Below, piece by piece: positions 21,819 through 51,526 of a stretch of 64,000 nucleotides of DNA. Under the pieces are notes generated by a model. That model was not told the DNA's origin and searched no databases. It saw nothing but the letters and a program-made list of their open reading frames with translations. Location: IMG/VR virus record IMGVR_UViG_3300045988_177049, positions 32,001-96,000 of that record; one strand, written 5' to 3'. The DNA comes from a virus. The position numbers and the translations under genes were made by a program. The stretch's first letter is position 1. Every line of letters starts with the position of its first letter.

Positions 21819-21923
21819 TCATCGTCTGTAAAATTGCCCCATGACTCCTGCCTCGTCGTAGGAGTCATGGGGCACCAACACCACAAAGCTCTATACTACT
21901 CTCTTTTTTTGAAAGGAGCACTC

Positions 21924-25905: not shown

Positions 25906-26241
25906 TTAGAACCCGTAGGTAGGCGAATCCTGTGCTGCATCCATCTCAGGATCGACGTTGTGAGACTGAGTGCGCGTAACAGTCGTTGTCGTCGTCTCCG
26001 TTTTCTTACTCATCGTGCCGCGCTGCTCTTCGATGTAAGCAGCTCGCATCTGTGAGGTGATACCTGTCGCGCCAATGTTGTACATGGCCGAGGCTGCACG
26101 ATTGAGCACCCCAAGCGACGGAGCACTTTGTCGCTGACGCTCAAGACGCCTCTGTCGCTCTTGGTTCCATGCATCACGATCTTCTGGCTTCACGCCAAAA
26201 AGATCACCCATCAACCCATCATCTGTTGGAAAACCGAGCAT
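25906..26241 (-). CDS. hypothetical protein
   Basis: ORF in the minus-strand block. No motif recognised. Confidence 0.35.
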   Translation of the reverse strand: MLGFPTDDGLMGDLFGVKPEDRDAWNQERQRRLERQRQSAPSLGVLNRAASAMYNIGATGITSQMRAAYIEEQRGTMSKKTETTTTTVTRTQSHNVDPEMDAAQDSPTYGF

Positions 26242-26290: not shown

Positions 26291-27952
26291 TTAACCGAGT
26301 GACGGCTCATCACCATCCTCTCGTTTAAATTGATCGGACTCACCCATCTCGAACCCATCGTCAACATCATTGAGTTCGAAATCAGTCTCAGCCGTGAATG
26401 CCGACGTCTCATGCTCGTTGTACTCCTGGTTGTCACGAGCACGGTTGTACGCATGACGACGGCGTTCCTTATCGCTCCTCATCCGCTCCGTGTGTGCATC
26501 TGCATGAGCGTTATCATGCCCTGGCGACTCGCGTGGATCAGAGTAGAACTCACCCCGCTGCCACCTGTTGTAGGTTTCCTCGGGGCTTGCGGCGAAATCC
26601 CGCATCTCCGACCTCCACTGCGAACCATACTGTTGTGCCCAGTGGCGTTCGATATCAGGATGCGCCTTCGCGACCAATTCCATTGCATGGACGAACGACG
26701 TCGAATAGACATCACGCTGGAGATCTCGACCAAAACCGTCAAACTCCATGGCTTCAAGCCCACGCTGAGCGCGACGAATCTTTTCACCCATTTGACCTGG
26801 GATCGCTTGGGTGTCGAGAGCCTTGTCTCGAACAAACCATGCCGAGCCATACGCCATCAACGTCTCATTAAGATCGACAAGGTTACCGTTCAAAGCAGCA
26901 CGTTCCATCTCACGAGCCATAGTCACGCTGAGCGACATCTCATGCTGCATATCCGACTGCGGGGGTCGCACGGTAAAGGCTCCACTGATAACAGACTCGC
27001 CCGCACGTGTCGACCACTTGCCCGACCATGTACGACCCAGCTCACCTGTTCGCGGATCAATCTGCTCGGTCATATCCATATCGACCTCGCCATGGGCCGT
27101 CTCGACAAAGCGATAGGCCCACTCAGGCTCATACGCCATACGCTGACCGACGAACATGCGACTAAGCGCACTCACGCGGTCTACATCCAACCCATCGAGC
27201 CGAACATCGTCCCAGAAACGCTCCATGAGGCGGTCATAGTTCTCTTGCACCTCAGCTGGATCGGCCCCAGGAGCGCGCATTTGCTCAAACGCTGCTTCAC
27301 TCAGGCCAATATGGGTCAGCGCAGCACTCATCTCGTTAAACGGAAGACGGTCGCCTCGCTCACTCGCCTCGATACGCTCCAAGCGACGCTTGAGCGACCA
27401 CGGCAGTTCCCCGCCGTGCTTCTCCTTATGCTCTTGGATGTCGCGGTTCACCTGCTCACGCTGGTGTTTCCGCCTGGCATTAGCCATGTCTTCAATCGCC
27501 ATACGAGCATCGCGCGTGAACGACCCTACCTGCTGACGAAAGTTCGGCGACAATAGCCACATCGTCACGCCCATACCGAGTGACTCAGCAACAGCTGACA
27601 TCGATACGCCGTCTTTGAGAGGCACCAAGGCGCTGAGCACCATCATGGACGCATACGCCTTGTGCTTACCTTTCAGATCGTTGGCGCGAGAGGCGAGATC
27701 GGCCTTGCGCCTCTCCCCTTTCAGATTCACTTGCTTCAACGCGTGTAAATACCCATCAGCGTGGCTACGCATCTCACGGCGAAGCTGTTGTCCCCAGTCC
27801 AGACGTGGAACACCTTGAACAGGGGTAGGCTCAGGCTCCGGCTCAATCACCGGATCAATGACGATCGTCTCCGTCACGTTCTCGTCAACTGCTGGCTTGC
27901 GAGGTTCTCCGCCATAGCGGGGTGCTGGAAGCTCACGGGGTGGCCGACTCAT
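26291..27952 (-). CDS. hypothetical large protein with FEL/GFEM motifs near its acidic C-terminus
   Basis: 553-aa ORF. The C-terminal region reads ...TDFELNDVDDGFEMGESD.... The opposite-strand ORF 26330..27556 is judged a shadow. Confidence 0.45.
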   Translation of the reverse strand: MSRPPRELPAPRYGGEPRKPAVDENVTETIVIDPVIEPEPEPTPVQGVPRLDWGQQLRREMRSHADGYLHALKQVNLKGERRKADLASRANDLKGKHKAYASMMVLSALVPLKDGVSMSAVAESLGMGVTMWLLSPNFRQQVGSFTRDARMAIEDMANARRKHQREQVNRDIQEHKEKHGGELPWSLKRRLERIEASERGDRLPFNEMSAALTHIGLSEAAFEQMRAPGADPAEVQENYDRLMERFWDDVRLDGLDVDRVSALSRMFVGQRMAYEPEWAYRFVETAHGEVDMDMTEQIDPRTGELGRTWSGKWSTRAGESVISGAFTVRPPQSDMQHEMSLSVTMAREMERAALNGNLVDLNETLMAYGSAWFVRDKALDTQAIPGQMGEKIRRAQRGLEAMEFDGFGRDLQRDVYSTSFVHAMELVAKAHPDIERHWAQQYGSQWRSEMRDFAASPEETYNRWQRGEFYSDPRESPGHDNAHADAHTERMRSDKERRRHAYNRARDNQEYNEHETSAFTAETDFELNDVDDGFEMGESDQFKREDGDEPSLG

Positions 27953-27966
27953 CTCATTCTCCTTTT

Positions 27967-29130
27967 CTACAGCTCGAAACTCGCCTCGTCCCGACGCGCC
28001 TGCTGTGGAGCAGGAGCACCCATGCGACGAGTAGTCGAAGGAACACGCGGAGCAGAGCCAACCTTTATGCTGCTCCCTGGCAGTGCAGCCTGAATCGTTC
28101 CTGAAGTCTTCTGAGACTCAGGTGACGGAGCAAGAGGTCGGCCATCTACATCGCGACCCATTGACGCCATCCATTGCTTGGCAACGTCACCCACACGCAC
28201 AGGCTGACCTGGGCCGCGCTGAGCACGAACGCTTGCCGCTGGCACTGAAGCCTGGGCAGGCTGAGAACTCACATTTTCATGCTGGCTCTGCTGCATCTGA
28301 GCCATGTTCTGACGATAATATGCGCGTGCATTATTCAGATCATGGAGCTGCGCATAATCTTGCACCATCGTGTCTTTGCCATAAGGCCGAACATAGTCAT
28401 GTTCAATCTTACTGATCTCCGCCATGGCTTCATCATCGATGAGGATCCCGCTCCAGGCAGCTTCCATAGCAGCGCCATAGAGCTTGTCGCCCTGATCGTT
28501 TACGCACGGCTCTAACCATCCCGACCGCGTATAGTCGGCTTCATAGTACTGAATCTTTTCGCCAGTACGGATAGCTCCATCACGAAGCAAAGCATTAACA
28601 TGTTCATCCCTCTGTGGCTCGTTCTTATTGATCACAGTCCTGACCTTATCGGCCAATGATCCTGTCCATTCGTGGGGATCAAGACCGTAGTACTGCTTAA
28701 TTTCAGCCTCTGTAGGCTGAGGGAATCGCATATCGAGCCTGAGATCAGCGAGCTTTGCATCATCGACCTGATGAACCGCATAATACGTACGACCAAGAGA
28801 CTCGGCACCAACAGGAAGGACATACTGATCATCGGCATCTTGAATAGCGATCATGGTTGGATCATCAATGATGACACCACCCCATGTCGCCTGGGAGATC
28901 GCATCGCGCAACTCGTTATCCACACGACCTTCATACTCGTCAAGCTCCATTTCCCGCTCAAAGGCTTTCACGCCATCTCGCAACAGAGCATTCGCATATA
29001 CGTCTCGATCCGGCATGTCTTTACCGACAATCGCTGCCATAGTGCCATCGAGCGTGCTGGACCACTCGTATGGTTCAAGACCATAACGCTGCTTGATCTC
29101 ATCGTTCGTGAGATCTCGATTCATCAACAT
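27967..29130 (-). CDS. tandem-repeat protein (two ~135-aa modules) with C-terminal ...ASFEL tail
   Basis: Internal repeats IKQRYGLEPYEWSST...NALLRDG... and IKQYYGLDPHEWTGS...NALLRDG.... Paralogous to the next gene. Confidence 0.5.
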   Translation of the reverse strand: MLMNRDLTNDEIKQRYGLEPYEWSSTLDGTMAAIVGKDMPDRDVYANALLRDGVKAFEREMELDEYEGRVDNELRDAISQATWGGVIIDDPTMIAIQDADDQYVLPVGAESLGRTYYAVHQVDDAKLADLRLDMRFPQPTEAEIKQYYGLDPHEWTGSLADKVRTVINKNEPQRDEHVNALLRDGAIRTGEKIQYYEADYTRSGWLEPCVNDQGDKLYGAAMEAAWSGILIDDEAMAEISKIEHDYVRPYGKDTMVQDYAQLHDLNNARAYYRQNMAQMQQSQHENVSSQPAQASVPAASVRAQRGPGQPVRVGDVAKQWMASMGRDVDGRPLAPSPESQKTSGTIQAALPGSSIKVGSAPRVPSTTRRMGAPAPQQARRDEASFEL

Positions 29131-29311
29131 AGTTGTCTCCTTTTCGGAAAATAGTACATGTCATCCACCTACTATTGTACCGTATAGACGGACTAATAAC
29201 GAGACGAATCCCCTGAAAACTCACACAAAACGAGCATAAAGAAGCAGGCCATGCTCAGCCCTTGATACAAGAGCATGAGCATGACCCGCTTGCGTGAGTC
29301 GCTACAGGACC

Positions 29312-30544
29312 TTACAGTTCAAAACCGCCATCGGCTTCATACGAATCCGACCTCTGTGGCGCTAACGTGTGAGACACAGACGTTGACCGTACACGAGGTG
29401 CCTGACGACCAACAGTGATACTGCTACCAGGAAGCACTGCCGCAATAGACCCCTGACGGGAACCTTGAGATGGGGTGGACGAAGATACAGGTTGACCATC
29501 AGTGTCACGCCCCATTGAGCGCGTCCATTGCTCCAAAGCATTAGCGAGCCGAACCTGCTCTTTACCATGAGCACTTCCACCTGTGATTACCGAAAAATCA
29601 GCAATTTCCTGAGCCGCTTGTCTCGATAACCCAGGCTTCTTCTCAGCATGAGACGAAACAAGCGTTGGTGCAGTCTCACGATAATACTTTCGTGCATCAT
29701 TAAGTTCACGCAACTCGTCATATTGGCGCGTCAACAATTCAGGAGCATAGGGAGTCACGTAGTTATGCTCCACCCTCTTGATAGCGTTCATCGTTTCAGC
29801 ATTGATCAAAATACCATTCTCTACGGCGTCCTTGATTGAATCACGCAGATCATAACCATAGACACAAGCATCCGCTCCCATATCATTATATGTTGCGTTC
29901 TCGGCCTCAAGCTTCTCCATACCAATCTCGAAAACAGCCACCTGATCACGCAAGAAACAGTTGACCTGATGTTCCTTATTCGGTGCGTCCTTATTGATAA
30001 TCGTCCTCACATCGACTGATGTACCCGTCCATTCATCAGGTTCAAGACCATAAATCGTCTCGATATACCAATCTGAGGGCCTTTGGTACTGCTCACGCAA
30101 AGACTGACGGTAATAAATCTGCAAGGGCTTATTGTAATAAACCTCTAAACAAGAACTGAGTAGCGATTCCCCATCACTATGAACCACGTATTCATTATCC
30201 ACATCATTGATGAACAAATAAGTTTCATCGTTGATAGAAACACCATTTTCGACAACGCGAGACACAGCATCCCGGAATTCAACGTCATCAGTGAATTCTT
30301 CGCCTGGTTCCAACGGAGTGTGCATACTTCGCTTAAAAAAGTCTGCACTGTCATACAGCAACGCATTGACCTGATCTTCTCGTGCGAGGTCATTCTTATT
30401 GATAATCGCTATCACTCGATCAGAAAGCGAACCAGCCCACTCATGAGCCTCAAGACCATAACGACTCTTGACCTCATCCTGTGGAACTGTTGCCATCCAC
30501 TCTGACATAACTGACACAGACATGATACATATTTCCTCTCTCAA
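29312..30544 (-). CDS. tandem-repeat protein paralog with C-terminal ...DGGFEL tail
   Basis: Repeats VKSRYGLEAHEWAGS...NALLYDS and IYGLEPDEWTGT...NCFLRDQ. The C-terminal region is collinear with the 27967..29130 product. Confidence 0.5.
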   Translation of the reverse strand: MREEICIMSVSVMSEWMATVPQDEVKSRYGLEAHEWAGSLSDRVIAIINKNDLAREDQVNALLYDSADFFKRSMHTPLEPGEEFTDDVEFRDAVSRVVENGVSINDETYLFINDVDNEYVVHSDGESLLSSCLEVYYNKPLQIYYRQSLREQYQRPSDWYIETIYGLEPDEWTGTSVDVRTIINKDAPNKEHQVNCFLRDQVAVFEIGMEKLEAENATYNDMGADACVYGYDLRDSIKDAVENGILINAETMNAIKRVEHNYVTPYAPELLTRQYDELRELNDARKYYRETAPTLVSSHAEKKPGLSRQAAQEIADFSVITGGSAHGKEQVRLANALEQWTRSMGRDTDGQPVSSSTPSQGSRQGSIAAVLPGSSITVGRQAPRVRSTSVSHTLAPQRSDSYEADGGFEL

Positions 30545-30667
30545 AGCGGGTTTTCAACTCATACACCAGTATATCGTACTATCTCTGCCATATTGAGATA
30601 CACCGGCTCATAAAGAGGAAGCGGGTTGCTCCAATCATGAAACAACCCGCTTCCCACGACTGATGAC

Positions 30668-33600
30668 TCACAGCTCGAAGCCATCGTCCTCACTCTCGAC
30701 AGCAACAGGCGCTGGCACCCGGTACTGAGCTGTCGTACTTCTGCTCACATGTGCCGTGCCCGTCTTCGAGCGAACAGGAACAGCCCATGACGTCGACTTG
30801 CGTCGTCCGATGGTTTCCTCTACCTCAACGCGAGCCACAGTGTCGTCCATCGCGATGACAGGAGCCTCGACTTGCGTCTCCACATCAGCCTGGAGCACCT
30901 CTCGCACGCGAGCAGGAGCAAAGCTCTCGTTCCACTTTCCTTCGAACAAACCGGCTCGCTCATGAGCCAACGTCTGCATCGTCGTGAAATCCCCACCGTA
31001 CGCCAGGCGATCCATCGGTGAGGCCAACTTTTCGATGACCTTCTCATCTTCCAAGTTGAGCATGATGCCGTTGCTATCACTGAGAGCCGTGGCAACCTTC
31101 TCGATGTTCTCAGCGTTCACGGTAACGCCCAAACCGTCGTCACCATAGAACCGAGAGAACGCCTCAACCCACTGCTCCTTCGTCGCTTGAACCGGCTTGT
31201 GATCAGCATCCAGAACAGTGTTCCACACGCCATCGTTTCCCTGAGCGATCATCTGTCCGCGCCACAAACTTCGAGCAGGCCCCATGAGCAGCTCATAACG
31301 ATGACGTGCATCTACCGGATCATGCTTGGCCTGCAAAATGCTCTGGGTCACCGGGTAGGTCAACTCCAAAACAGCTTTCAGTTCCTCGTTACGCAGCGCT
31401 CGAACGCCGCGCTGAGAGAAGGTTCCAGCAACCCCTGTACCAAACGATTTCACAGCCGTTGCGTACATGGTACCCTTCTGATCATCGCGCGTGACCTGAG
31501 TGGTCGTCAGATCCACATGTGTCTCAGGGTCATATCCGATGTACTTGGCGTAATCAAGCATCTTCTTGGGCGAACCCTTTGCTCCAGTCTCGATACATGC
31601 CTTCTCAACAGAAGCCATGTGCTCGTGAACCGACCCAAAGGAAAGCACAGCTTCACCATACTGATGACGCAGTGCATCGTGATACATCCGTGATGCAGCA
31701 GCGCTCACCTCACGGCTCGTCTCCAAGAACCGCTCACGACTAGACTCACCTTCGACGAAATCGTAGTATGCGTTGTTTGCCATCTGGTGAACCTCAGCCA
31801 TATCTTCCGCATAAAGCGAGTCATAGTGCTGAGACACCTTCACGTCCAGCGCATCATGCATCGCCAGAGGGTAGCAACCCTCGTCATCCATGCCTTGACC
31901 CAAATCAAGGAGATTCGCCTCAACACTCAGCCTCTCCATGGCTTGCTCGTGAGCAGCCCCGTGACCCAGGTTGACGACTGCCACCGAGTCACCATCAAAG
32001 TCGCCATCGAAACACTTGACCATGTTCGGATTCACGCTCACACCCGTGAGACGCTCGTCAATGCTCACTCGCATGTAACGAACGCCCGCATCACGGAGCA
32101 CGGGATCACGCCAGATCAAAGCGTAGTCACCATCACGTAAGCGCAGTTTTTTCGCCAGCTCTGGACCAACACCAACTTGATCAATATCAAGCCTGGGGTC
32201 CCCTGTCCACACAGCGGTTGCCGAGCGTGGCAAACGAGAAGCCATCAAGCCTTCCTTGACGACGTTATGTTTACCCGTAAAACGGCGGCGCATGATGTCC
32301 TGGGCAATACCGTCGTAAGCCGTCTGTGCGCGGTGCATAGCCTCAGCCATCGTTTGACGAGCATCGGCCAAGTCCTTACCCGTCAGCTCACCCGAGGCAG
32401 CGCGGTCAGCCGCGTGCTTGTAACGCAGCGCCCACTCACGGATCGTCAAATAGCGATACGTGTAGTCATGGACCGTTGACGACCCATCATCCAGGTCTTG
32501 ACCCGAGCGCAAGTGCGAACTCAGCACCGGCACACGCCACGTGGTATCCGTTGCGTGTAGGGTGCGCTCCCCCGTTGGCATCGTCAATGGGAATGGAATC
32601 TCCATATCACCACCAGCGTCACCAATGAGCGCAGCAAAATCACTCCGAACCTTGCGCACGTCAAACGACCCGCGTTCGGTCACAGGAACCTCACCCATCT
32701 CGATGAGACGGCGCGCACCACCAACAGCAAGATCGTCATGGCCCTCACGCAGCGTCCCATCGGGTTCGATGTCAAGACCGCACACCAGAGCCATCTCACG
32801 AAGCTGAGCGAGAGCTTGCAGATTACCACCGTAGATCTGCTCCAGCACCTTGTCGCATCCCTGAGACTGCAACGCCCAAGCAAGCTGAGACGAGGCTTTA
32901 CGTCCCTGACCAGCACGAATAGCAGCGTCATCGTATGCAGCAGTCTTTGCATCAACCGTCATATGGGTACCAATGAAGGACACCTGACCGATACCGTTTT
33001 CAACAACCTCGCCGTTTGGCAGGTACAACGGAGCGGTACTCTGCATCGCTTCACGAGCGCTACCACCGTTGAAACGAGACACCGCGCTAAAGGGTGCCAT
33101 CACGACGTCCAGATCCGGGTTTTGCCTAAACAGATCCATCATGTCAGTCGATCCATACAGATCTTCGATCTCCGAAGACGTCAATGAGGCATCACGGTCA
33201 ACAATGAGTGAAATGACACCCTTGTTGCCGTGCATGTCGGAAATCTTGTCGCCGACAATGAGATCACGCATCTCGCCATCGGTTCCACGAACGCGATATG
33301 TACGCGCGAAATCAGCCGAAACAACGATGGAGTCTTCCATCGTCCATCCACCAGCCGTCATAAACGCCGTGCCCACAGGCTTCGTCACAGACGAGGCATT
33401 CATGAGATTCGATGTTGTCATCTGTTGACGATCGAAAGGATCATAGCTCATGAACTCAGCTTGTTTCGTCAGCATGAGCGGAGCACGATCACCCTTGTCT
33501 GAGGGAACAATCGACCCATCGACGTTCACCTGAGCACCAGAAACCAGATAACGAGTCACGCCTTGGTTGACACCGCTCGATGTCATGATCGGATCAAAGT

Positions 33601-36121
33601 AGCCATCGGCTTCCTCACTGAGCAACGACATATTACGACCGCCCGTGAGCACCCACGGATCCATCGTCGTGTCGTTGGCGGGATCGCCGCTAAAACCCTG
33701 TTCCCGTGCGCGAGATGCACGGAAATCCGCATCAATGGTTGATCCATCACGCAGTGCATTCGGATAGCGCACGCGGCGCGCTTCGGTGGCAAGAATTGCA
33801 TCGAGAATCTCTCGATCCATACCCTCTTCAAGGGCACGCTCATAGTGATCTGCTCGATGGCGCGTATCAGTCAGCCTACGATACACACCGTTAAGGGAGG
33901 CAGGCTCACCGACGCGAGACCGGCCTGTGAGCACGTCAGCTTGAACCCGATAGCGAATCGCATCACTCATCTGCTGTTCGTAACCGATCAGCCGAGTGCG
34001 CTCTTCGAGAGACTTCTTTTCTCCGGGTTTTTGACTGACGACGCGCGCCTCAAAGCCTGGCACGATCATGAGATCGTTACCGGAGTTGAAACGAGTGATG
34101 ATCTCTCCATTCTCACCGCGAGCGAAGATCTGTCCGATCGTTCCGCTCACAGGCTCTTCTCGACCTGTTTGGGAACGCATGATTGAGCCGGTCCACTCCA
34201 CGACACCGTTTGCATCGACGCGGATCGATCCAGGAGTAACCGCGCACGATTCAAGCGTGTCTGACACGACTTGAAGCATCGATGTGGTGAACTCATCGTC
34301 CACAACGTCCATTGACAACGCCGTGGACTCGTCGAAAGTGATCAATCGATCCCTAAATGCGTTGGAATAGAAAGATTCTCCAACGATCTTTTCCTTCGGC
34401 AAACGCGCGGTACGCATTGCAGCCACAAGATCATCGTTGTTACGCCACTGACCGTATTCACTGGTCATGTAACGAGCAGTACGCACGGGATCAAAGACAA
34501 ACTCATCCGACTCAATCGGTGCATCCACACCGATTTGAGTATCGAGTAGATCACGCAGGTGCGCACGAACGCGCTCTTCTGGACTTCCCGTGTAAGCCAC
34601 AGAACCGGCCAACATGTCGTGAACACCAGACAGATCGCTGTCTTGGTCCATCTCATCGAGCAACCCTGTTGCTTCGGCGTACTCAGACCTAGTTGCATCA
34701 GGCTTGAGCAATGTGGTCTCTGCTCCGCGCAGAACGTCCCAATACGCGCGCCCAACGGCTGCAAGATCAGGATCGCCAGACAACACAGGAACATACGTCC
34801 CCTCGCGTGCAGCGTCTTCATGCTCGCTGAGCTGACGGATCAAACCGTCAACATCGAGCTGCTGCTCCACATTGATGCGAGCACTACGAACAGCATCGGT
34901 GATAAACGTCGATGCCTGGGTTCGACCTTCGGGCGTATCAACGAAGAACCGAGACGAGGCAGAACGCTCCTTCATCTGACGACGGATGACCACCTGCTCA
35001 CCGTTTGCTCCCGGCATGTCCTTATACGCACTCGTGAGCGTGTCTGTGGACAAATACGACTCTTGAAGCGTCTTATTCTTGCTCTGACGCTGACCAACGT
35101 GGCCGACAAGACCTTTACCGTCCTTGCGCTCCACGGGGCGTCCCAAGGCGACGCGCACAAGGTCGCACACCTCATCAACAGTGGGTGTGTACGCCACCTG
35201 CTTGTTATCTCGACGAGCAGTCGTGGAGAAGTACAGCGTTGCACCGTTGTCATAGACACGACCCACCCACTGCTCTTTGTCTCGGGTATCGGTCAGACGC
35301 ACCGTCATATTCGTTCCCGTGAGTCGAGCACGAATCTGACCGGGACGCAAGTCCTTTTCAATCGTGTAGGGAATACCTTCTTCGGCCAACATATCGAGCA
35401 CAGCTCGGGAGCGAGCAAGTGCGTCGGTACTCATGAACTGACGGGCGTTATAGCGTCCCGTCTCAGGGTTACGTGCACCATCAAGTACCCACTGACGAAC
35501 ATCGTTGTACTCAGCCGTCGTCATGCGACCCATGAGTTCAGTCAGGCCCGAGATATCATCGAGGCTGAGTGCCCGGCCTGCTTCTTTCGCATCGCCGTCT
35601 TCGTTCAGACGATAGAGCTTGAGTTCCGAGGATGTGACCTTTTCCAGACTACTCGGCTTGCCATCGGCAAATGCAGCAATGTCATCATCGAGAATATACA
35701 AAATCGATGAACCAGCTTGCTTGACGCTTCGGCGGGTTCCCCACCGAGGATCATAAGGAGAGATCGGCAAACGAGGTCCAGCAGCTCCTGTAGATCCGCT
35801 CAGACCAATCGTCGCCGTAAAGTCTTTGTACAACGCCTTGTAGCCCTTACTTGATGTATCGGCAGGCTGGAACAAGGCTTTGTATCCTGGGACGTTCTCA
35901 CTCATGACGCTTTGAATAGCGTCGAGTGCTTCGGGGACGCCTAAGTCCCCATCGTTAAACGAACGTCCATTTTCATTAAGCTTGGCTTCCATGAGATCTC
36001 GCAAGTGCCGACCCTGTGAAACCAGGATCGGAGAACCAATCAACTCACTCGTTCGATTGATCGTACGGGCGATCATGTACTCATACATGTACCGACGCAA
36101 ACCAGCATTACGCGTTTGCAT
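30668..36121 (-). CDS. single-chain two-barrel (multisubunit-type, beta/beta-prime-like fused) RNA polymerase homolog, 1817 aa, C-terminal ...DDGFEL tail
   Basis: At aa 964-968 (nt ~33218-33232) IVGDKISDMHGNKGVIS matches the RNAP beta DPBB signature GDKxxxRHGNKGVxS. At aa 1374-1378 (nt 31988-32002) PVLRDAGVRYMRVSIDERLTGVSVNPNMVKCFDGDFDGDSVAVVNL matches the beta-prime catalytic loop ...NADFDGD. Confidence 0.7.
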   Translation of the reverse strand: MQTRNAGLRRYMYEYMIARTINRTSELIGSPILVSQGRHLRDLMEAKLNENGRSFNDGDLGVPEALDAIQSVMSENVPGYKALFQPADTSSKGYKALYKDFTATIGLSGSTGAAGPRLPISPYDPRWGTRRSVKQAGSSILYILDDDIAAFADGKPSSLEKVTSSELKLYRLNEDGDAKEAGRALSLDDISGLTELMGRMTTAEYNDVRQWVLDGARNPETGRYNARQFMSTDALARSRAVLDMLAEEGIPYTIEKDLRPGQIRARLTGTNMTVRLTDTRDKEQWVGRVYDNGATLYFSTTARRDNKQVAYTPTVDEVCDLVRVALGRPVERKDGKGLVGHVGQRQSKNKTLQESYLSTDTLTSAYKDMPGANGEQVVIRRQMKERSASSRFFVDTPEGRTQASTFITDAVRSARINVEQQLDVDGLIRQLSEHEDAAREGTYVPVLSGDPDLAAVGRAYWDVLRGAETTLLKPDATRSEYAEATGLLDEMDQDSDLSGVHDMLAGSVAYTGSPEERVRAHLRDLLDTQIGVDAPIESDEFVFDPVRTARYMTSEYGQWRNNDDLVAAMRTARLPKEKIVGESFYSNAFRDRLITFDESTALSMDVVDDEFTTSMLQVVSDTLESCAVTPGSIRVDANGVVEWTGSIMRSQTGREEPVSGTIGQIFARGENGEIITRFNSGNDLMIVPGFEARVVSQKPGEKKSLEERTRLIGYEQQMSDAIRYRVQADVLTGRSRVGEPASLNGVYRRLTDTRHRADHYERALEEGMDREILDAILATEARRVRYPNALRDGSTIDADFRASRAREQGFSGDPANDTTMDPWVLTGGRNMSLLSEEADGYFDPIMTSSGVNQGVTRYLVSGAQVNVDGSIVPSDKGDRAPLMLTKQAEFMSYDPFDRQQMTTSNLMNASSVTKPVGTAFMTAGGWTMEDSIVVSADFARTYRVRGTDGEMRDLIVGDKISDMHGNKGVISLIVDRDASLTSSEIEDLYGSTDMMDLFRQNPDLDVVMAPFSAVSRFNGGSAREAMQSTAPLYLPNGEVVENGIGQVSFIGTHMTVDAKTAAYDDAAIRAGQGRKASSQLAWALQSQGCDKVLEQIYGGNLQALAQLREMALVCGLDIEPDGTLREGHDDLAVGGARRLIEMGEVPVTERGSFDVRKVRSDFAALIGDAGGDMEIPFPLTMPTGERTLHATDTTWRVPVLSSHLRSGQDLDDGSSTVHDYTYRYLTIREWALRYKHAADRAASGELTGKDLADARQTMAEAMHRAQTAYDGIAQDIMRRRFTGKHNVVKEGLMASRLPRSATAVWTGDPRLDIDQVGVGPELAKKLRLRDGDYALIWRDPVLRDAGVRYMRVSIDERLTGVSVNPNMVKCFDGDFDGDSVAVVNLGHGAAHEQAMERLSVEANLLDLGQGMDDEGCYPLAMHDALDVKVSQHYDSLYAEDMAEVHQMANNAYYDFVEGESSRERFLETSREVSAAASRMYHDALRHQYGEAVLSFGSVHEHMASVEKACIETGAKGSPKKMLDYAKYIGYDPETHVDLTTTQVTRDDQKGTMYATAVKSFGTGVAGTFSQRGVRALRNEELKAVLELTYPVTQSILQAKHDPVDARHRYELLMGPARSLWRGQMIAQGNDGVWNTVLDADHKPVQATKEQWVEAFSRFYGDDGLGVTVNAENIEKVATALSDSNGIMLNLEDEKVIEKLASPMDRLAYGGDFTTMQTLAHERAGLFEGKWNESFAPARVREVLQADVETQVEAPVIAMDDTVARVEVEETIGRRKSTSWAVPVRSKTGTAHVSRSTTAQYRVPAPVAVESEDDGFEL

Positions 36122-36357
36122 AACATTCTCCTTTTCAGGTTCGGCCCAGTCGGACCGATCGGGTGATTACCCTTACATATTACCTGAAAAACCCACGCTT
36201 TTCAACGGAAACACTGTCGAAACGCTTTTGTATCGAGTACGATAAATACGTAGATGTCATATCGCAAACCCCGGTGTCACGGACAAACATTTTCCGTGTG
36301 TAACATCCGACAAGCCATATGACCATCTCTCAACACACAACAGAAAGGACACTCACC

Positions 36358-37749: not shown

Positions 37750-37770
37750 TACCTCACACAGGGCGCGAGT

Positions 37771-37818
37771 AGCGGCGGTTCGTATGACACATGTTGTGCG
37801 AGCCGCCGCTTCCTTTTG
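37771..37818 (+). terminator. hairpin terminator
   Basis: agcggcggttcg-(16 nt)-cgagccgccgct then tccttttg. Confidence 0.5.
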
Positions 37819-37842
37819 CACCACACCGACAAAGGAGTAACC

Positions 37843-38593: not shown

Positions 38594-38628
38594 ACATCAA
38601 TGGATACTTTTACGTAAATAACAATCAA

Positions 38629-39183: not shown

Positions 39184-39235
39184 CTATGTTACAATGGATA
39201 ATATAAACCACTTCTAGTAGAAAGCCGCGCACACC

Positions 39236-45311: not shown

Positions 45312-47600
45312 TTAGACACCCAATGTACCACCACCAGCAGCATTATTCATCACCCATGACATCATCGAAGCAGCGTGTGCGCTCGAACCTGCCCCGCCAT
45401 GAACGAGCATTCCAATGATCACGCCCAGTGCGAGGAACGCCAGAGCGACCAAAACCGCCAGCGCGATGTAGAGTCGGTTGGCTCGCTTGGCGACAAGGTT
45501 CTCGCGATCCATCTGATCCATGAGCAGCTGCTTGTCGGTTTGCAACGACTCGACCTGGCTCTGGAACTGCCGTGCGATCTCATCACGAACAACGCCAACG
45601 CGCTCGGCTTCTTCCTTCACGCGCTCGTTCGCACGCTGAACCTCTGCGCGAGCCTGAGCGAGCTGTGCATCATTTTCCTGGCGCATACGCTCCAAGACCT
45701 TGTTCGCTTCGTCCTGAGCCGCTAGAACGCGCTTGTGGGCTTCATCGCGTTCACGTGCGATCTGCTCGTGCAGCTCCTGTTCACGAGCTGCAAATTCAGC
45801 GCTCTTTTCCTCAACGATGTTCTGACGCGAGAGCTGTTCCTGGAGAGCCTGGGTACGAGCAATGTCTTCCTTACGATTCTCATCAAGGAAGTCATTCATC
45901 TCGACGCGGAACTTCTCGATCAGTTCAGCTTCACGCTGCACCTGCTCAGCGCGCTTTTCAATGAGGTGATCCATCACCTTAGTGATGGCCGCATCGAACG
46001 CACCCTGTGCCGAGGTCTTGCGAGCACGCAAAATCTCATAGCGGCGTGCCTCGTAGTCGGATTCGATGTCCAAGCGAATCGATACTTCCAAGTCGTCCAT
46101 CTGGCGAGTTAGAGCGGGCTTGTGACGCTCGTCGTAACGCACGCGCTCTTCCCCGATTCGAGCCTGGATAAAGGCTTCACGTTCCTGCTGGTACCGATCG
46201 GCGAGTACAGCCTTCTCCTTCTCAGAAATCTCAATCAAATCGGCAAGAGCCTTTGTCTCATTACCATTGACCTCAGCCATGGTCTTGGCCCACGTGTTCT
46301 CGGCGTCTTCGTCAATGCTCATCTGAGACGAGATCTCATCTCCCGTACGTGAGACGAGCGAGAAGAACAGGTTACGCAGTTCCTCGATATCACGACGACG
46401 CTGGTCAGCAAGAACAGTGTTCGCCTGCTGAGAGAGCATCTTGATCTGACCATCAAGCCAGTTGGTGCTGTCCAGATGATCCAGAGAGAACTGAGCCGGG
46501 GTATCAACCTCGTAGCCCAGCAGGGTCTCGAAAGGCGTCATATCAACGGCGAAATCCAGGCTGTCATCAAGGAAGCGACGAGCAACGGCTGTGCGAACAG
46601 CGTCTTTATTAAAGACACGCTCGTCCACCGGAGCAACCTCAGGTGCGACCTCTACCTCTTCGGTCTGAGTCGGTACATGCAGAGCAGGGGCGGGAGCCTC
46701 TTCGATGTCATCGAAGGGGTTCTCATCCTCATCGTCCTCGTCATACAGACCCTCATCCGAAGGCAGCTCATCAACCATCGATTCATCCGGGATGTCATCG
46801 GGGTCGAAGTGAGGCAGGTTTTCAACAGCCTCAACAGACTCACTCTGAGCAGCGGTAGGCGGAAGGGTCGGAGCAGCCGGTGCTGCTTCCTCATGCACCT
46901 CTTCGGGTGCCACTTCTTCTACAGCTTCCTCTTCAACCCCGTCTCCACCGAGACGCTTCCACAGCGTCGGGATGAGCGATGCCAAGGTGATAGTACCCGC
47001 TGCAATCTCCTGAGCCTGAGCCAGGGTGACAGTATCGATGTCTCCATCAGGAACCTCAATGAGACCCGTTGCTTCATCGAAATGAACAGGAACGGTTTCA
47101 AGAGTTCCATCGGCGGCAGGGGTCACCGACGTGAGCAAGAACTTCGCACGGTCGAACAGGGTGTACTCCCCCATGCCATCAGGTCCAAGGGAAGCAGGGG
47201 TGGGGATCACGCCCAAAATATTGTGACGAAGCATGTCTTCGGTCGCACACACCTGGATCTTATCGTCAGCGATCCGCTGAAGGATCGACCCCTTGTCTTC
47301 ATTGCCCTTGGACGAGACCTTACCGAGGCCCCCGATACCGCCGTCTTCGATCGAGGCGTCAACAGGGAGCGCAAGAATCACGCCAATACCGTTTGGCAGA
47401 AGCCATTCGGTGTTCTGGCGAATAATATCAAGGGCAGCGCCGGGTTCAGTCTCATCGATGACCAAAGTCAGCGAGTCCTTCGCAGCACGTGCATCAACGG
47501 CTGGTGCCTTCGTTTCGGTCTGAGCAGGAGCGGCTGCCTGAGCTTCTTCAATTGCGCCGCCGCCATCGGCAGCAGCCTTGTCTTTCTTGCCAAACAACAT
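45312..47600 (-). CDS. membrane-anchored coiled-coil protein with acidic N-terminal region
   Basis: Long heptad-rich E/R/K/Q region (aa ~400-700) then a C-terminal TM helix LYIALAVLVALAFLALGVIIGML. Sits between the T4CP and the Clp-like ATPase. Confidence 0.5.
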   Translation of the reverse strand: MLFGKKDKAAADGGGAIEEAQAAAPAQTETKAPAVDARAAKDSLTLVIDETEPGAALDIIRQNTEWLLPNGIGVILALPVDASIEDGGIGGLGKVSSKGNEDKGSILQRIADDKIQVCATEDMLRHNILGVIPTPASLGPDGMGEYTLFDRAKFLLTSVTPAADGTLETVPVHFDEATGLIEVPDGDIDTVTLAQAQEIAAGTITLASLIPTLWKRLGGDGVEEEAVEEVAPEEVHEEAAPAAPTLPPTAAQSESVEAVENLPHFDPDDIPDESMVDELPSDEGLYDEDDEDENPFDDIEEAPAPALHVPTQTEEVEVAPEVAPVDERVFNKDAVRTAVARRFLDDSLDFAVDMTPFETLLGYEVDTPAQFSLDHLDSTNWLDGQIKMLSQQANTVLADQRRRDIEELRNLFFSLVSRTGDEISSQMSIDEDAENTWAKTMAEVNGNETKALADLIEISEKEKAVLADRYQQEREAFIQARIGEERVRYDERHKPALTRQMDDLEVSIRLDIESDYEARRYEILRARKTSAQGAFDAAITKVMDHLIEKRAEQVQREAELIEKFRVEMNDFLDENRKEDIARTQALQEQLSRQNIVEEKSAEFAAREQELHEQIARERDEAHKRVLAAQDEANKVLERMRQENDAQLAQARAEVQRANERVKEEAERVGVVRDEIARQFQSQVESLQTDKQLLMDQMDRENLVAKRANRLYIALAVLVALAFLALGVIIGMLVHGGAGSSAHAASMMSWVMNNAAGGGTLGV

Positions 47601-47752: not shown

Positions 47753-50700
47753 TTACGCGAGAACAGCATCATAAGGTTGGACCACAACACGCGCATCCGA
47801 CTTCAAAATCGACACGTCTTCACTACGCAATGTGCCTTCAATTCTGACGGCAATATTACGTTCATGTGGATGTTCATTGATAAACGCGGCGATTTCCGTT
47901 GTCACAAATCGCTGCATCCGTCGCACCATGTCACGAGCACCACCAGAGTCCGAGTCGCTCCGCGCCTCATCTTCCACGAGAAACTCCAACACACGCCCAT
48001 CGACGGTGACATGGATACCGTGCTTACGCTTGACGTCTGTGATCATTTCAGCGAGCTTCTTCGTCATGATCTTGCGCAGCGTGGCACGAGACAGAGGCTG
48101 GAACGGGACGATGGCATCGATACGACCCAAGAGTTCCGGTGGGAACTTTCCACCGTCTTCGCTCTTGATCGAGGTCTCGATGATCTTCTCGTAATCTCGC
48201 ATCGTCTCTTCGCTCCCGTGGTCATCGGCGTTGTATTCACCAATGGTGCGATAGATCTCAGAGCCAGCGTTCGTGGTCAACACGATGTACGTGTTCAGGA
48301 ACGAGACCTGGCGACCATCTTTATCGGACAGACGACCGTCATCGAGCACCTGAAGCAGCAGGCGCACAACGAGCGGTGACGCCTTCTCGATCTCATCGAA
48401 AAGCAGCACGCAGTGGCTCGTTGCCCACACGTGACGAGCGAGGTCTTCACGGAAGAGATCAACGCTGTCATCCCTGCCCCATTCCGACATGTCGAAACGC
48501 ACAAGGTGGCGCTGATCGTCGCCAAACAGGATCTTTGCAAGCTGCTTCGTGACCTCAGTGTTGTGCGTAACGATGAAGTCACCTGCTTGGTACAGGTGCT
48601 CGTCATCGGCAACGTAAATACACGAAGAGGACTCTCGATACGGAAGTTTCTCGATCTTGGTGATACCGACCATATCGAACTTCTTGACACGTTGACGACC
48701 CTTGGTTGCGACCTTTGCTTCCTCAGCAATGGCACGCTTACGCTCCAACCAAAAGAAACGAGTCTTATCGTCATTGCTGGACTTGACGTAAATCGTATAC
48801 TCCGTTGACACACGACCATCATCATCGGTGCGCATATACGTATTCATAGTGTTAGACACACCGAGCGAAAACAGCAGTTCGCGTACATCCTCAGCCAGGC
48901 CCTGAGAAGATGTCGAATAACTGACATCATAACGATCCTTAACGATGCTACCGTCAGTATCGAAAAGCCCGCGCACTAGCTCCCAACGTTGTCCAACGGA
49001 TGCCGCCATATACTGTTGTGGGATACGACGCTCAGTAGAATATACACCGATTAACTCAGGAACCTTAGCAAAGATATCTTTCGTCTGAACGAGACTATCC
49101 CTATGCCCAAATTTCTCACCAGTTTTAAATAGCCAGCAATAATGTGCGTTATCTTCCTTAAACTCAAAACCGATGGTCTCACTGATACGACGTACAACAT
49201 CAATATCATCAGAAGATAGCCTCAGTGGCTTTCTCGTCAAACACCCATTTCCGATAAACACCCCAACCACATAAGGATCTACCGGCAAATGAGCATCAGG
49301 CCACTGCACAGCCTCATTCATCGGGATGAAAAACTTCATGCGTTTCGCCCCACTCTTTGGATGAATGTTCAATACACCCGACTCCAACATATCCATCGTT
49401 GTCATCACACGAGGCTGAACATCGAGGCCCCCACGCTTACGCTCCCGCATAGACCGAGTGTACACACTCCATAAATGCGGCCCACCAACATCAAGGTGTC
49501 GACCATCCCACGTGTGAACACGATAAATGTCCTGCTTCCCTTGAGGGAACACAGCGAGAACCTCTTCCGGTGAGCCATCGCGTTTAAACACACGATCACC
49601 AGGAACGAGATCACCGTGACGTTTCCACGCCACAGAACCATCCTCAGAAAAGACTGGTACACGAGTAGAGTCTGTACACAGCTTGCCCACGCCTGAGCTG
49701 CCCGTCAGCAACAGCGATGCCATAGGTTTACTCGGGTCATTCAACCCGGCCACACACAGCTGCAAACGCCGTGCAATCGACGTCGTGGCAAAGTCTTGGC
49801 TAAAGACGCGCTTGTCCAGCTCGGCTTTAATCGCCGTAGCATCGACGTTAATCTCGACTTCGACACCGAACTCGACTTTCAACACTGTTGCGAGCAGTTT
49901 CTTATCCATCGGCTCACCGAGGTACCTGTGGCGACCCACCATGGCATCGAGCACACGGATCGACTTACGCGGCTGTACGGAGGCAGGCACGTAGCGGTTC
50001 GTGTAGTCAAAGATCTGCTCGTAGAGCGACTCGCTGATCATGCCCTGATCGACGCCATACTTTTGCGCCATGGCCTTGAGAATCTCGATAGTCACCCTTC
50101 GATTCGTCTGAGGGATGTTGATACGCGCAAGGCGTTCAACCAAAGGCAGGTTCGAGGCAATATGAGCATCGAACTCGTCATAGGTCGTTGCCGCAATAAC
50201 CTTGATCCCACGCGATCCAGAAGCCGCGAGCAAAGGCTTGAGCGCTTCCACAGCAGCAGCGGAGAGCTGAACCACCTGGTGAAACTCGTCGATGAACAGC
50301 ACGACTTCCCGGCCCTCGGCCTTAGAAAAAGCCTCGGCTTCGTCGAACAGAGCCTTGAGGCGTGCAGCCATTTCCTCGGGGTTCGACAGGTCAGAGATCA
50401 TCTTCGCCATGTCAACTTCGAGGTAAATACGAGCCGGATCATCTTCCATGCACGACTGTACGAGCACAGTGTTGTGCGTGACGATGTGACCCCGACCCAC
50501 CTGGTACAGGTGAGTGTCCGAGTCCACCATGATGCACGTCATCTCTGTTTCACGGTTATTGTCAATAACCTCAGCGATCAAGCCACCGATTCGACCCAGA
50601 GAACACTCCAGCTCGTGCATGTCGATATCGACCTTCCAGATGAAAGGCGAGGACACATCTCGATACGACTCACTTTCTCGCAAGGCTCGTACCATCTCTT

Positions 50701-51526
50701 GACGATCATGAACGCTACTCGTCATGTACAGACGCGGGATGCGACGCTGTTCCTCATCCTTCACGATCAAACCTGTAAATGCTGGATGCGTCATCACCTG
50801 TGGGCCTTCGACGCGCTTACCTGTCCCCTCGTGGATAAAAATCGATCGGGAACTCTCGCGCTGTCGCTTCCATCCCATGTGCTCTTCGATCGCTGCAAAA
50901 ACCTCATCGGGAGCCTCATTCGGCATACTGACGTACCCACGCTCGTCAATGCGTACACCCCAGCCGAGAAACGCTCCGCACACATAAGGATCAACCGGGA
51001 GCAAACGGCTCTGTCGCACCAGTGCTCCAGATGCAGGCAGCTCCCATACCAAAGACCTGTCCTGGGGATCCACCAAGCCCTGGTCCATAATCTCTCGCAG
51101 CGACAATGTCTGCCACTCGTGAGTTCCACAGCGACGCACAGTCCACAGGTGCTCATCGTTGCAGCGTACTCGATCCCCTCGATTCGTGACCATCTCATAT
51201 TCGCGCCGCATCCCCTGTGGGAACACGCCTGTGACAGTGACAGGGTCTCCGTGTTCATCAAAGACGCGATCCCCCACCTTGAGCATCCCAATACGCACGT
51301 ACCCACGTTCGTCTGCAACCGGAATCAACTCATCGTTTGGATGAGCCTTGCCGGTGCCTGGCGGGGCAAGCAGAATCGCGTTACACATCTCGGGGCGAGC
51401 CAGAGCACTCATCAATGAGACCTTCTCCTTTTCACGGCCCACAACTTCACGCGCGGGTTTGCCCAGACGAGACGCAAAATCTCGCAGCATGGGATAAGCC
51501 TCATTCAGACGATCATTGTCGAACAC
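47753..51526 (-). CDS. ClpA/ClpB-like double-AAA+ ATPase precursor interrupted by two inteins
   Basis: Extein sequence reconstitutes D1 LLAPPGTGK|T..., VVLFIDEFHQV, VIAATT and D2 LLTGSSGVGK(L)|TEVTKQLAKILFG, VLLFDEIEKA, LTTNAG. It is paralogous to the 14964..16805 product. Confidence 0.7.
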   Translation of the reverse strand: MFDNDRLNEAYPMLRDFASRLGKPAREVVGREKEKVSLMSALARPEMCNAILLAPPGTGKAHPNDELIPVADERGYVRIGMLKVGDRVFDEHGDPVTVTGVFPQGMRREYEMVTNRGDRVRCNDEHLWTVRRCGTHEWQTLSLREIMDQGLVDPQDRSLVWELPASGALVRQSRLLPVDPYVCGAFLGWGVRIDERGYVSMPNEAPDEVFAAIEEHMGWKRQRESSRSIFIHEGTGKRVEGPQVMTHPAFTGLIVKDEEQRRIPRLYMTSSVHDRQEMVRALRESESYRDVSSPFIWKVDIDMHELECSLGRIGGLIAEVIDNNRETEMTCIMVDSDTHLYQVGRGHIVTHNTVLVQSCMEDDPARIYLEVDMAKMISDLSNPEEMAARLKALFDEAEAFSKAEGREVVLFIDEFHQVVQLSAAAVEALKPLLAASGSRGIKVIAATTYDEFDAHIASNLPLVERLARINIPQTNRRVTIEILKAMAQKYGVDQGMISESLYEQIFDYTNRYVPASVQPRKSIRVLDAMVGRHRYLGEPMDKKLLATVLKVEFGVEVEINVDATAIKAELDKRVFSQDFATTSIARRLQLCVAGLNDPSKPMASLLLTGSSGVGKLCTDSTRVPVFSEDGSVAWKRHGDLVPGDRVFKRDGSPEEVLAVFPQGKQDIYRVHTWDGRHLDVGGPHLWSVYTRSMRERKRGGLDVQPRVMTTMDMLESGVLNIHPKSGAKRMKFFIPMNEAVQWPDAHLPVDPYVVGVFIGNGCLTRKPLRLSSDDIDVVRRISETIGFEFKEDNAHYCWLFKTGEKFGHRDSLVQTKDIFAKVPELIGVYSTERRIPQQYMAASVGQRWELVRGLFDTDGSIVKDRYDVSYSTSSQGLAEDVRELLFSLGVSNTMNTYMRTDDDGRVSTEYTIYVKSSNDDKTRFFWLERKRAIAEEAKVATKGRQRVKKFDMVGITKIEKLPYRESSSCIYVADDEHLYQAGDFIVTHNTEVTKQLAKILFGDDQRHLVRFDMSEWGRDDSVDLFREDLARHVWATSHCVLLFDEIEKASPLVVRLLLQVLDDGRLSDKDGRQVSFLNTYIVLTTNAGSEIYRTIGEYNADDHGSEETMRDYEKIIETSIKSEDGGKFPPELLGRIDAIVPFQPLSRATLRKIMTKKLAEMITDVKRKHGIHVTVDGRVLEFLVEDEARSDSDSGGARDMVRRMQRFVTTEIAAFINEHPHERNIAVRIEGTLRSEDVSILKSDARVVVQPYDAVLA
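48560..49678 (-). mobile_element. intein 2 (~373 aa, Cys1 ... HN / +1 Thr) in the D2 P-loop of the Clp-like ATPase
   Basis: Inserted after GVGK(L). N-block CTDSTRVPVF...GDRVF. LAGLIDADG motifs PYVVGVFIGNGCL and VRGLFDTDGS. C-terminal DFIVTHN|TEV. The exact -1 residue (L) is uncertain. Confidence 0.6.
50471..51346 (-). mobile_element. intein 1 (292 aa, Ala1 ... HN / +1 Thr) in the D1 P-loop of the Clp-like ATPase
   Basis: Inserted between GTGK and T of the Walker A. Hint N-block ...VRIGMLKVGDRVF..., C-terminal GHIVTHN|T. An internal LAGLIDADG-like segment (PYVCGAFLGWG). Confidence 0.6.

Follow-up and report, generated by a model that had tools for sequence, protein, structure and literature searches.

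The 64,000-nucleotide stretch analyzed here (positions 32,001 to 96,000 of IMG/VR record IMGVR_UViG_3300045988_177049, hereafter the window) is part of a plasmid-like conjugative element of an uncultured Actinomyces, and several mutually unrelated proteins of its transfer region end in the same kind of short linear motif, hereafter called the tail. The tail consists of an acidic run, a hydrophobic or aromatic residue, one of E, Q, G or S, then one of L, F, M, P or Y, followed by zero to three small residues. It lies in disordered termini, is conserved across Actinomycetota and is found only on those proteins of the transfer region that do not belong to the transfer apparatus itself. We tentatively favor the view that it may represent a new docking or export signal, read by the giant VirD4-like type IV coupling protein (T4CP) of the element, by the adjacent Clp-like unfoldase, or by both. 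As far as our search of the literature can tell the motif is new, since we found no description of it, of an RNA polymerase (RNAP) encoded by conjugative elements, or of the transfer module considered here.

A preliminary description of the window had reported a common acidic tail on four consecutive proteins, namely a single-chain RNAP and proteins of 410, 387 and 553 amino acids (aa). The corresponding open reading frames (ORFs) indeed follow one another on the minus strand, separated by 123, 181 and 14 bp, at coordinates that were checked by translation (table 1), and three of the products end as described: the RNAP in EDDGFEL (codons 30671-30691), reached by a low-complexity linker, the 410-aa protein in ADGGFEL (29315-29335), at the end of approximately 65 disordered residues, and the 387-aa protein in DEASFEL (27970-27990). 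The 553-aa protein departs from this description, for it ends TDFELNDVDDGFEMGESDQFKREDGDEPSLG; its C-terminal module comprises a RARxNQxYNE helix and then a disordered stretch containing DFEL, DDGFEM and the terminal DEPSLG (26294-26386), so that the GFEL-like copies are internal. AlphaFold2 (AF2) models agree with the disordered context of the tails (pLDDT of ~32-40). The 410-aa protein is modeled as all-alpha, with pLDDT ~32 for residues 339-403, and the 553-aa protein as a helical core with the RARxNQxYNE helix and a disordered tail (pLDDT <50 for residues 516-553). Solved structures include no informative relative of either model, and the orphan tailed proteins of the window have no meaningful match in Pfam, PHROG or NCBIfam.

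The preliminary description also considered these proteins unrelated except for a collinear C-terminal region of ~80 aa in the 410- and 387-aa proteins. The RNAP, the 410/387 pair and the 553-aa protein are indeed independent of each other, but BLASTP aligns the 410- and 387-aa proteins from end to end (394 aa, 38% identity, E=1e-70); the two are full-length paralogs, and we thus count three independent families instead of four. The collinear region is real and was inherited by common descent together with the tail; it was rejected as a second shared signal, since the paralogy spans the full length of the two proteins. A DNA repeat at the gene ends was rejected too, because only the tail codons align, with synonymous differences (TTC/TTT, GAG/GAA) and different stop codons (TGA, TAA and TAG). 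The likeness of the tails is thus maintained at the protein level.

The set of tailed proteins is broader than these four. The MobL-family relaxase ends in DASDDIELG (52344-52361), the 367-aa protein encoded immediately upstream of it in DEEPEF (54744-54761) and the 183-aa protein encoded immediately downstream in NDEPEF (51657-51674), while the 111-aa protein has a weak form of the tail, DSPTYGF. The tailed proteins are soluble and fall in two blocks, around the relaxase and around the RNAP. The tail is absent, both in the window and in the related Gordonia plasmid pGKT2, from the hydrolase, the large upstream orphans, the AAA+ ATPases, the membrane protein and the T4CP; the LysM protein of the window has a signal anchor and no tail.

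A strict tail rule, with a background of 2.0% of internal pseudo-termini, selects 7 of the 57 ORFs of the window, all of them on the minus strand of the transfer region (binomial P=1.2e-4). As the strict rule post-dates the data, we built a position matrix with RNAP sequences only, using 148 distinct RNAP tails from other elements and excluding the close relatives of the window's element. When applied to the other 56 ORFs of the window, this matrix placed the 410-aa, 367-aa, relaxase, 553-aa, 183-aa and 387-aa proteins in the top six positions, five of them at empirical p<=0.005 (0.0016 for the 367-aa protein, 0.003 for the relaxase and 0.005 for the 183-aa protein), where 0.28 would be expected.

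Related elements retain the tail as well. For the RNAP, databases contain 96 homologues with 36-96% identity; it occurs in 80 loci in genomes (76 of Actinomycetota and 4 of Firmicutes) and is also plasmid-borne in Streptomyces, Rhodococcus fascians (pGS01) and Gordonia (pGKT2); the related loci span Streptomyces, Arthrobacter, Gordonia, Rhodococcus and others, as well as oral Actinomyces. Almost all the homologues end in an acidic run followed by aromatic or aliphatic residues, for instance DDDYGMGY, DDYQL, DSFQL, GGPELG, DGFEYGL or EGLGA, with a positional profile of 50-73% acidic residues at -8 to -6, 65% aromatic at -5 and 80% aliphatic at -3. The low-complexity linkers preceding it vary in length and sequence, and the tail is kept at 36-50% identity. 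Three further families show positional profiles similar to that of the RNAP. When all ORFs of 84 loci were clustered into families and scored with a loose tail rule (background of 9.6% of internal windows), prevalence was 87% in the RNAP family, 61% in the 553-like family, 83% in the 111-like family and 88% in a 181-aa family with no member in the window. It was 25% in the cluster of the relaxase and 183-aa proteins, 3% in the cluster containing the T4CP and AAA+ ATPases, 0% for the 762-aa membrane protein, 3% for HU and 0-17% in each other family with at least eight loci. The other scoring schemes, namely the strict rule and the matrix, agree on this family-level split. Homologues in related elements do keep the tail. 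Its presence in several unrelated families, down to 36-50% identity, strongly supports the earlier proposal that proteins without kinship but with a common tag share a partner or a fate.

Within single families the details are consistent with this picture. The 553-like proteins carry a motif, D[VD][DG]F[EQD][LM]G, that can be aligned at 28-43% identity behind an indel-rich region; it is terminal in most members and internal in the close homologues of the window protein, which have a second copy at the new terminus. The homologues of the 111-aa protein end in EPDLEL, DPDFEL or DEGFEF and those of the 183-aa protein in AVPNF, AVPSF or V[DE]xPxVG. Those of the 410-aa protein add little, because they are all closely related (identity >=77%): 118 of the 120 listed end in GFEL and the remainder in GFGL. 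The tails come in at least two flavors, type A or D[YF][GQE][MLP] in the RNAP, 553-like and 410/387 families and type B or EPDL[EQ][LF] in the 111-like and 181-aa families, the tails of which (EPDLEL and EPDLQFE) are closer to each other than to the RNAP tail. The matrix trained on the RNAP recognizes 61% of the 553-like and 67% of the 410/387 members. Regarding the 181-aa family itself (L083 29778-30323, minus strand; cluster present in 48 loci), its EPDLQFE tail is conserved, it has no Pfam match and its core is reminiscent of RelE/ParE toxins (…HRIVWRE…IALGER…AYY.AGQRLGRP).

It could be argued that such tails have no specific function, acidic low-complexity C-termini being common in actinobacterial mobile-element proteins and their likeness being compositional; internal windows satisfy the loose rule in 9.6% of cases, the motif itself is degenerate and a test for co-variation of the tails was negative (see below). 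We regard this explanation as very improbable, given that prevalence is bimodal by family, the tip is conserved while the linkers diverge, the matrix gave its signal with training and testing separated, and identical peptides are found despite synonymous variation.

Individual relatives show how many proteins of one element can be tailed. In pGKT2, nine to ten proteins of the relaxase and RNAP blocks end in the tail, mostly in the form GPx[LM](G)(A), and none among the upstream apparatus genes; the tails include GPQLGG, GPSL, GPQLG, GPEMSA, GPELGA, EGLGA and SPGM, with GPx[LM]G occurring five times. The RNAP, a 778-aa protein of the 553-like family, a 103-aa protein, the LysM protein and MobL are among the tailed proteins of pGKT2. 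In the locus L001, three proteins share the ending VDDGFEL and a fourth ends in DGFEPSL. Other elements too have a tail on the protein encoded immediately upstream of MobL (GPQLGG in pGKT2 and EQSLGT in the Streptomyces plasmid). In both pGKT2 and pGS01, the LysM (peptidoglycan-binding) protein is tailed and has neither signal peptide nor transmembrane (TM) helix. A tail in place of a Sec signal on a protein that would bind the cell wall is what an export signal predicts, and we take it as circumstantial evidence from two closely related plasmids only. The program MOB-suite types pGKT2 and pGS01 no higher than 'mobilizable'; it calls the Streptomyces plasmid 'non-mobilizable', although a MobL relaxase is annotated in it. 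According to a passage of PMC5640721 that cites Jung 2011, pGKT2 is experimentally transmissible, between genera. Its host, Gordonia sp. KTR9, can be cultured, and transfer of the plasmid to Rhodococcus and Nocardia is documented.

A basic segment lies 15-30 residues before the tail in the RNAP (RARG..RRS..VRAPRPRP), the 410- and 387-aa proteins (APRVRST) and the 553-aa protein (RRRHAYNRARDNQ). This arrangement would suit autoinhibition, each acidic tail folding back on a basic patch by which its own protein binds nucleic acid and thereby regulating DNA or RNA binding, as in T7 gp2.5, SSB and HMGB1, with no common partner involved. We consider this quite unlikely, for it leaves unexplained both the conserved hydrophobic spacing (F/Y, x, L/M) and the near-identical tails on unrelated proteins, such as the threefold VDDGFEL of L001 and the fivefold GPx[LM]G of pGKT2. 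Moreover, neither the LysM protein nor the 367-aa protein, which is acidic, shows an obvious basic patch.

The overall architecture, a disordered linker and then an acidic tip with a hydrophobic end, resembles that of SSB, the protein that binds single-stranded DNA, and the tails may instead tether DNA- and RNA-processing proteins to one intracellular hub without any export, thereby forming a nucleoprotein complex on the DNA of the element, either in the donor or, once they have been expressed normally there, in the recipient. Candidate hubs would be the relaxosome, an SSB-like protein, RarA/MgsA or the RNAP itself. We rate this whole reading as unlikely, even if several observations fit it: the 183- and 367-aa proteins end in DEPEF, near the DEPPF tip of actinobacterial plasmid SSBs; the element encodes RarA/MgsA, which in E. 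coli binds the SSB tip; and most tagged proteins adjoin nucleic-acid enzymes. However, genuine DEPPF tips of SSB, together with mimics ending in EEPPF and ESPF, coexist with the different GPxLGA, EGLGA and NGYEF tails in pGKT2 and pGS01, and the main class of tails is therefore not simple SSB mimicry. The hub also fails to account for a tail on a cell-wall-binding LysM protein that lacks a secretion signal, while the variable trailing residues and the internal copies in the 553-aa protein argue against a free-carboxylate pocket of the SSB type. The SSB of these plasmids that ends in DEPPF and the small hypothetical proteins nearby, which are possible SSB-tip mimics, lie at L081 31239-34651 and L082 31196-33034.

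The transfer genes found in the window include those of the T4CP, the MobL relaxase and a cell-wall hydrolase. The T4CP has two N-terminal TM helices, a soluble domain (residues ~200-1346), a large insertion between Walker A and Walker B (~480-870) and an acidic C-terminal extension that lacks the tail; it is a candidate receptor of the tails. The Clp-like ATPase encoded two genes upstream, a candidate unfoldase or receptor, carries one insertion in each Walker A P-loop, with junctions GTGK|…THN|T and GVGK|…THN|T. The first insertion resembles the gp41-1 intein and the second contains a LAGLIDADG domain; the pGKT2 ortholog is an uninterrupted protein of 588 aa. It has no tail. It is also devoid of an N-domain and shows TIGEY where the [LIV]-G-[FL] loop for docking ClpP would be expected, features that fit an unfoldase better than the partner of a protease. 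These features bear upon the suggestion in the preliminary description that the tail is an ssrA-like tag, read by Clp-like unfoldases of the element. Acting as a degron, with the help of host ClpP, it would limit the lifetime of transfer proteins; two Clp/Hsp100-type ATPases are indeed present in the window, the second of which (14964-16805) has a QMGFGD loop. We find this proposal improbable, since the tails are acidic and end in FEL, ELG, SLG or PEF, unlike LAA-type tags, the ATPase that is syntenic with the T4CP lacks the ClpP-docking loop, and it is hard to explain why destruction tags would be kept across a phylum on a relaxase, a polymerase and at least five other proteins. Other C-terminal motifs were rejected as well: the HbYX/GQYL motif of the proteasome on its register (Tyr/Phe at -3, not -2), the beta-clamp-binding motif for want of QLxLF and Pup-like ends for want of GGQ/GGE.

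We return to the docking or export signal. According to this reading, the tail at the end of a disordered linker would recruit soluble proteins of the element to the substrate-receiving side of the transfer machine, namely the giant T4CP, probably with the Clp-like double-ring unfoldase, and the proteins so tagged would leave in unfolded form along with the DNA. The cargo would comprise the relaxase and its two flanking proteins, the two-barrel RNAP, the 410/387 pair and members of the 553-like and 111-like families. A substrate of 200 kDa needs an unfoldase, a role that would fall to the adjacent Clp-type ATPase. This reading is plausible, and receptor, unfolding step and translocation are all predicted parts of it. 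We favor it because tail prevalence is bimodal by family, with the cross-family statistics of the strict rule and the matrix pointing the same way, and because the gene order MobL, small tailed protein, Clp-like AAA+, membrane protein, T4CP, RNAP is conserved. Circumstantial support comes from the relaxase, the obligate transferred protein, being tailed in this element together with both flanking proteins while the apparatus is not, and from the lack of a Sec signal in the tailed LysM protein of pGKT2 and pGS01. It is also in line with the need of type IV secretion system (T4SS) substrates for unfolding (PMC5826034) and with the many proteins that conjugative T4SSs move (PMC8406263, PMC11288057).

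Several points weigh against a dedicated export signal. The tail rules were written after the data had been seen, and only the test with the matrix keeps training and testing apart. Tails are not significantly more similar within than between elements in permutations of family pairs (p=0.10-0.77); co-evolution of the tails with one receptor thus finds no support, and the uniformity seen within L001 and pGKT2 stays anecdotal. Only 56 of 150 MobL representatives (37%, against a background of ~10%) pass the loose rule and some members are clearly devoid of a tail, as is the relaxase of the Streptomyces plasmid, which ends in EREQKD. The RNAP-trained matrix recognizes type B tails poorly (16% of the 111-like and 10% of the 181-aa members), and the motif is degenerate, with at least two subtypes that share an acidic part followed by hydrophobic, x, hydrophobic. 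No tail was found among the Firmicutes relatives of the RNAP, for which the Lachnospiraceae loci were examined, and at least one of these Firmicutes relatives (L080) adjoins a giant T4CP. Finally, Pfam detected no VirB4 ATPase in the conserved module of the window (~64 of ~110 kb), of pGKT2 or of the Streptomyces plasmid; either VirB4 lies outside the examined sequence, or it is too divergent to be detected, or the machine is atypical, and without a recognized VirB4 the route of export is poorly defined. Mating-pore components of this family of elements were not recognized either, though pGKT2 is self-transmissible according to the literature.

A more specific scenario, possible but rather doubtful, would combine these elements: an atypical machine, with the giant T4CP and a dedicated Clp unfoldase but no recognizable VirB4, may inject the relaxase-DNA complex together with tail-tagged proteins including the 200-kDa two-barrel RNAP, so that the enzyme made in the donor would start transcription or priming on the incoming single strand, the tail being its export signal. 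To our knowledge, substrate recognition by the conjugation machines of Gram-positive bacteria, and Actinobacteria especially, is essentially unknown, and the signals of Gram-negative models are ill-defined. The tail is a compact mark that can be defined in sequence, provides a cheap experimental handle in the culturable and transmissible pGKT2 and allows prediction of the protein cargo of an element from sequence alone. Export would also provide a rationale for the Clp-type unfoldase always encoded beside the T4CP, and the motif offers a testable route to the idea of a conjugative element shipping its own RNAP into the recipient. If the tail were a hub-binding motif instead, it would still reveal a previously unnoticed network of protein interactions in a large family of mobile elements.

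Table 1. Coordinates within the window of the genes discussed in the text.
Feature	Position	Strand	Matches and remarks
Fused beta/beta'-type (two-barrel) single-chain RNAP, 1817 aa	30668..36121	-	Pfam RNA_pol_Rpb2_6 and Rpb1_2
Orphan all-alpha protein, 410 aa as listed	29312..30544	-	Internal two-fold repeat
387-aa paralog of the 410-aa protein	27967..29130	-	BLASTP
553-aa orphan helical protein	26291..27952	-	Directly downstream of RNAP in most related elements
111-aa protein	25906..26241	-	Family kept after the 553-like gene
MobL-family relaxase, 774 aa	52341..54665	-	Pfam MobL 2.4e-63
367-aa acidic orphan	54741..55844	-	Immediately upstream of relaxase
183-aa orphan	51654..52205	-	Immediately downstream of relaxase; helical acidic C-terminus
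Giant VirD4-like T4CP, 1346 aa	41124..45164	-	Pfam T4SS-DNA_transf, TraG-D_C, TrwB_AAD_bind; NCBIfam conju_CD1115
762-aa protein, hydrophobic C-terminal anchor, no tail	45312..47600	-	Between AAA+ ATPase and T4CP in 72 loci
Clp/Hsp100-type double-AAA+ ATPase	47753..51526	-	Two intein-like insertions; mature protein ~590 aa
Second Clp-like double-AAA+ ATPase, 613 aa	14964-16805	+	QMGFGD loop resembling ClpP-docking loop

The minus-strand transfer region begins with a lysozyme-like hydrolase and orphans, continues with the 367-aa protein, the relaxase, the 183-aa protein, the Clp/Hsp100-type ATPase, the 762-aa membrane-anchored protein and the T4CP, and then, after an insertion of accessory genes, with the RNAP, the 410-, 387-, 553- and 111-aa proteins and an HU homologue. 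The order that recurs in fully annotated elements is relaxase, small protein, AAA+, membrane protein, T4CP, RNAP, 553-like, 111-like and HU; Mycobacteriales plasmids have extra genes after the relaxase and are without the HU gene. The 762-aa protein belongs with the apparatus-like genes, the 367-aa protein is a possible relaxosome accessory and the true start of the 410-aa protein is probably M8, which would give 403 aa. Residues ~98-140 of the 553-aa protein form the most conserved stretch of its family, which is hydrophobic (HKxYASMMVL…PL..G…GM…MW.LSP.FR.Q), was modeled with AF2 confidence of ~50-60 and could be a membrane-inserting or buried hairpin. In the RNAP, the catalytic motifs DFDGD and GDK..HGNKG are kept, with D1374, D1376, D1378, K959 and N966-G968 invariant in the whole family. 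A single-chain RNAP of ~1800 aa with the catalytic motifs of beta and beta' is kept immediately downstream of the giant T4CP in integrative and conjugative elements and plasmids of Actinomycetota. More distant relatives (23-40% identity) occur in metagenome-assembled genomes (MAGs) of Lachnospiraceae and in plasmids of Staphylococcus and Lactococcus, one Lactococcus plasmid match lying in an unrelated gene context; all these RNAP relatives are annotated as hypothetical.

The closest genome match of the window's RNAP is an Actinomyces MAG contig (96% RNAP identity). Homologues of window proteins are very abundant in public metagenomes, with clusters of 570-680 member sequences, and the contigs that carry them are concentrated at 100-115 kb, pointing to a plasmid-like replicon. 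One is labeled 'Herelleviridae sp.', and the element is probably misclassified as a phage in some resources. Megablast of 26-38 kb against plasmid and phage collections gave no match, relatives surfacing only at the protein level. Most relatives are without the insertion between the T4CP and RNAP genes (36319-41020). Its products are a surface protein, in which a low-complexity region rich in Pro/Thr/Ser (PT-type) is combined with a sortase-type anchor, LAHTG; an HNH protein; and a protein of 594 aa that has four treble-clef zinc fingers of DUF4379 and also matches REase_MTES_1575 weakly. On the plus strand, the second Clp-like ATPase sits among a MoxR-like AAA+ protein, RarA/MgsA and a SNF2 helicase. 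A UvrD-like helicase (17596-21818) is split into two ORFs flanking that of a LAGLIDADG endonuclease (19880-20581) and corresponds to a single 792-aa ORF in the close relative L026; it is probably another intein or homing-endonuclease insertion, in which the element seems to be rich. A 265-aa ORF (21834-22631, plus strand) has a PemK/MazF-type toxin domain and a lysine-rich C-terminus.

We do not claim membership of the tail in any of the known families of signals with which it can be compared. The closest functional analogue is the Dot/Icm (type IVB) signal of Legionella and Coxiella effectors, in which an E-block and a hydrophobic residue near -3/-4 are read by the DotL-DotM coupling complex. 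Both signals lie at an unstructured extreme C-terminus, are degenerate and mark many unrelated substrates of one machine, and the Dot/Icm acidic block, which lies approximately 6-17 residues before the end and has a critical hydrophobic residue after it, a few positions from the terminus, is like that of the window tails. The core of the latter is tighter and nearer the terminus (hydrophobic, x, hydrophobic in the last three to seven residues), and here the bacteria are monoderm Actinomycetota with a MobL relaxase and a giant VirD4-like T4CP, the predicted cargo being DNA-processing proteins of the element instead of host-targeting effectors. No window protein scanned has a Pfam or NCBIfam match to DotM, IcmS, IcmW or LvgA.

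A similar comparison can be made with ESX or type VII secretion, in which the C-terminal tail of EsxB is bound by the FtsK-like ATPase EccC and EspC is bound by the AAA+ protein EccA. There, too, actinobacterial C-terminal substrate tails are read by a membrane ATPase of the FtsK/VirD4 superfamily and a cytosolic AAA+ protein, whereas here the coupling ATPase is VirD4-like and DNA is moved with a relaxase; WXG100 and YxxxD/E features are absent, and profile scans of the window proteins found no WXG100 or Ecc families. The SSB tip (DDDIPF, or DEPPF in Actinobacteria) likewise combines a disordered linker, an acidic tip and a hydrophobic end in a short peptide read by a partner. The tails differ from it in being carried by an RNAP, a relaxase and orphans without an OB-fold SSB domain and in tolerating trailing residues; the four proteins first reported end in FEL or SLG and others in GFEL, DYQL, DYGMGY or GPELGA. 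The SSB consensus, D-D-D-[IL]-P-F or D-E-P-P-F with a terminal Phe, is neared by DEPEF alone, the ending of the 183- and 367-aa proteins.

Among conjugative T4SSs (VirD2, VirE2, VirF and MobA; the 'conjutome' of F, RP4 and pKM101), co-transferred proteins, including relaxases, SSB and leading-region proteins, are often recognized via their C-termini (PMC11288057, PMC8406263). The known signals are positively charged or hydrophobic (PMC11288057), whereas the window tails are acidic with a defined hydrophobic pattern, and we found no consensus motif like them in the literature on conjugative substrates. If the tail is an export signal, the counterparts of the RNAP would be the virion RNAPs delivered with the genome (N4 vRNAP, crAss-like gp66) and transferred plasmid primases such as Sog and TraC (PMC5512222). 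A survey of proteins delivered by phages and conjugation lists RNAPs of the N4 type only, and in phages only (PMC5512222). In contrast with the N4 and crAss-like enzymes, the RNAP of the window belongs to a conjugative element and not to a phage, is of the multisubunit, two-barrel type fused in one chain and has a delivery that is predicted; as an export signal, the tail would allow the element's own polymerase to be delivered with the incoming DNA for early transcription or priming.

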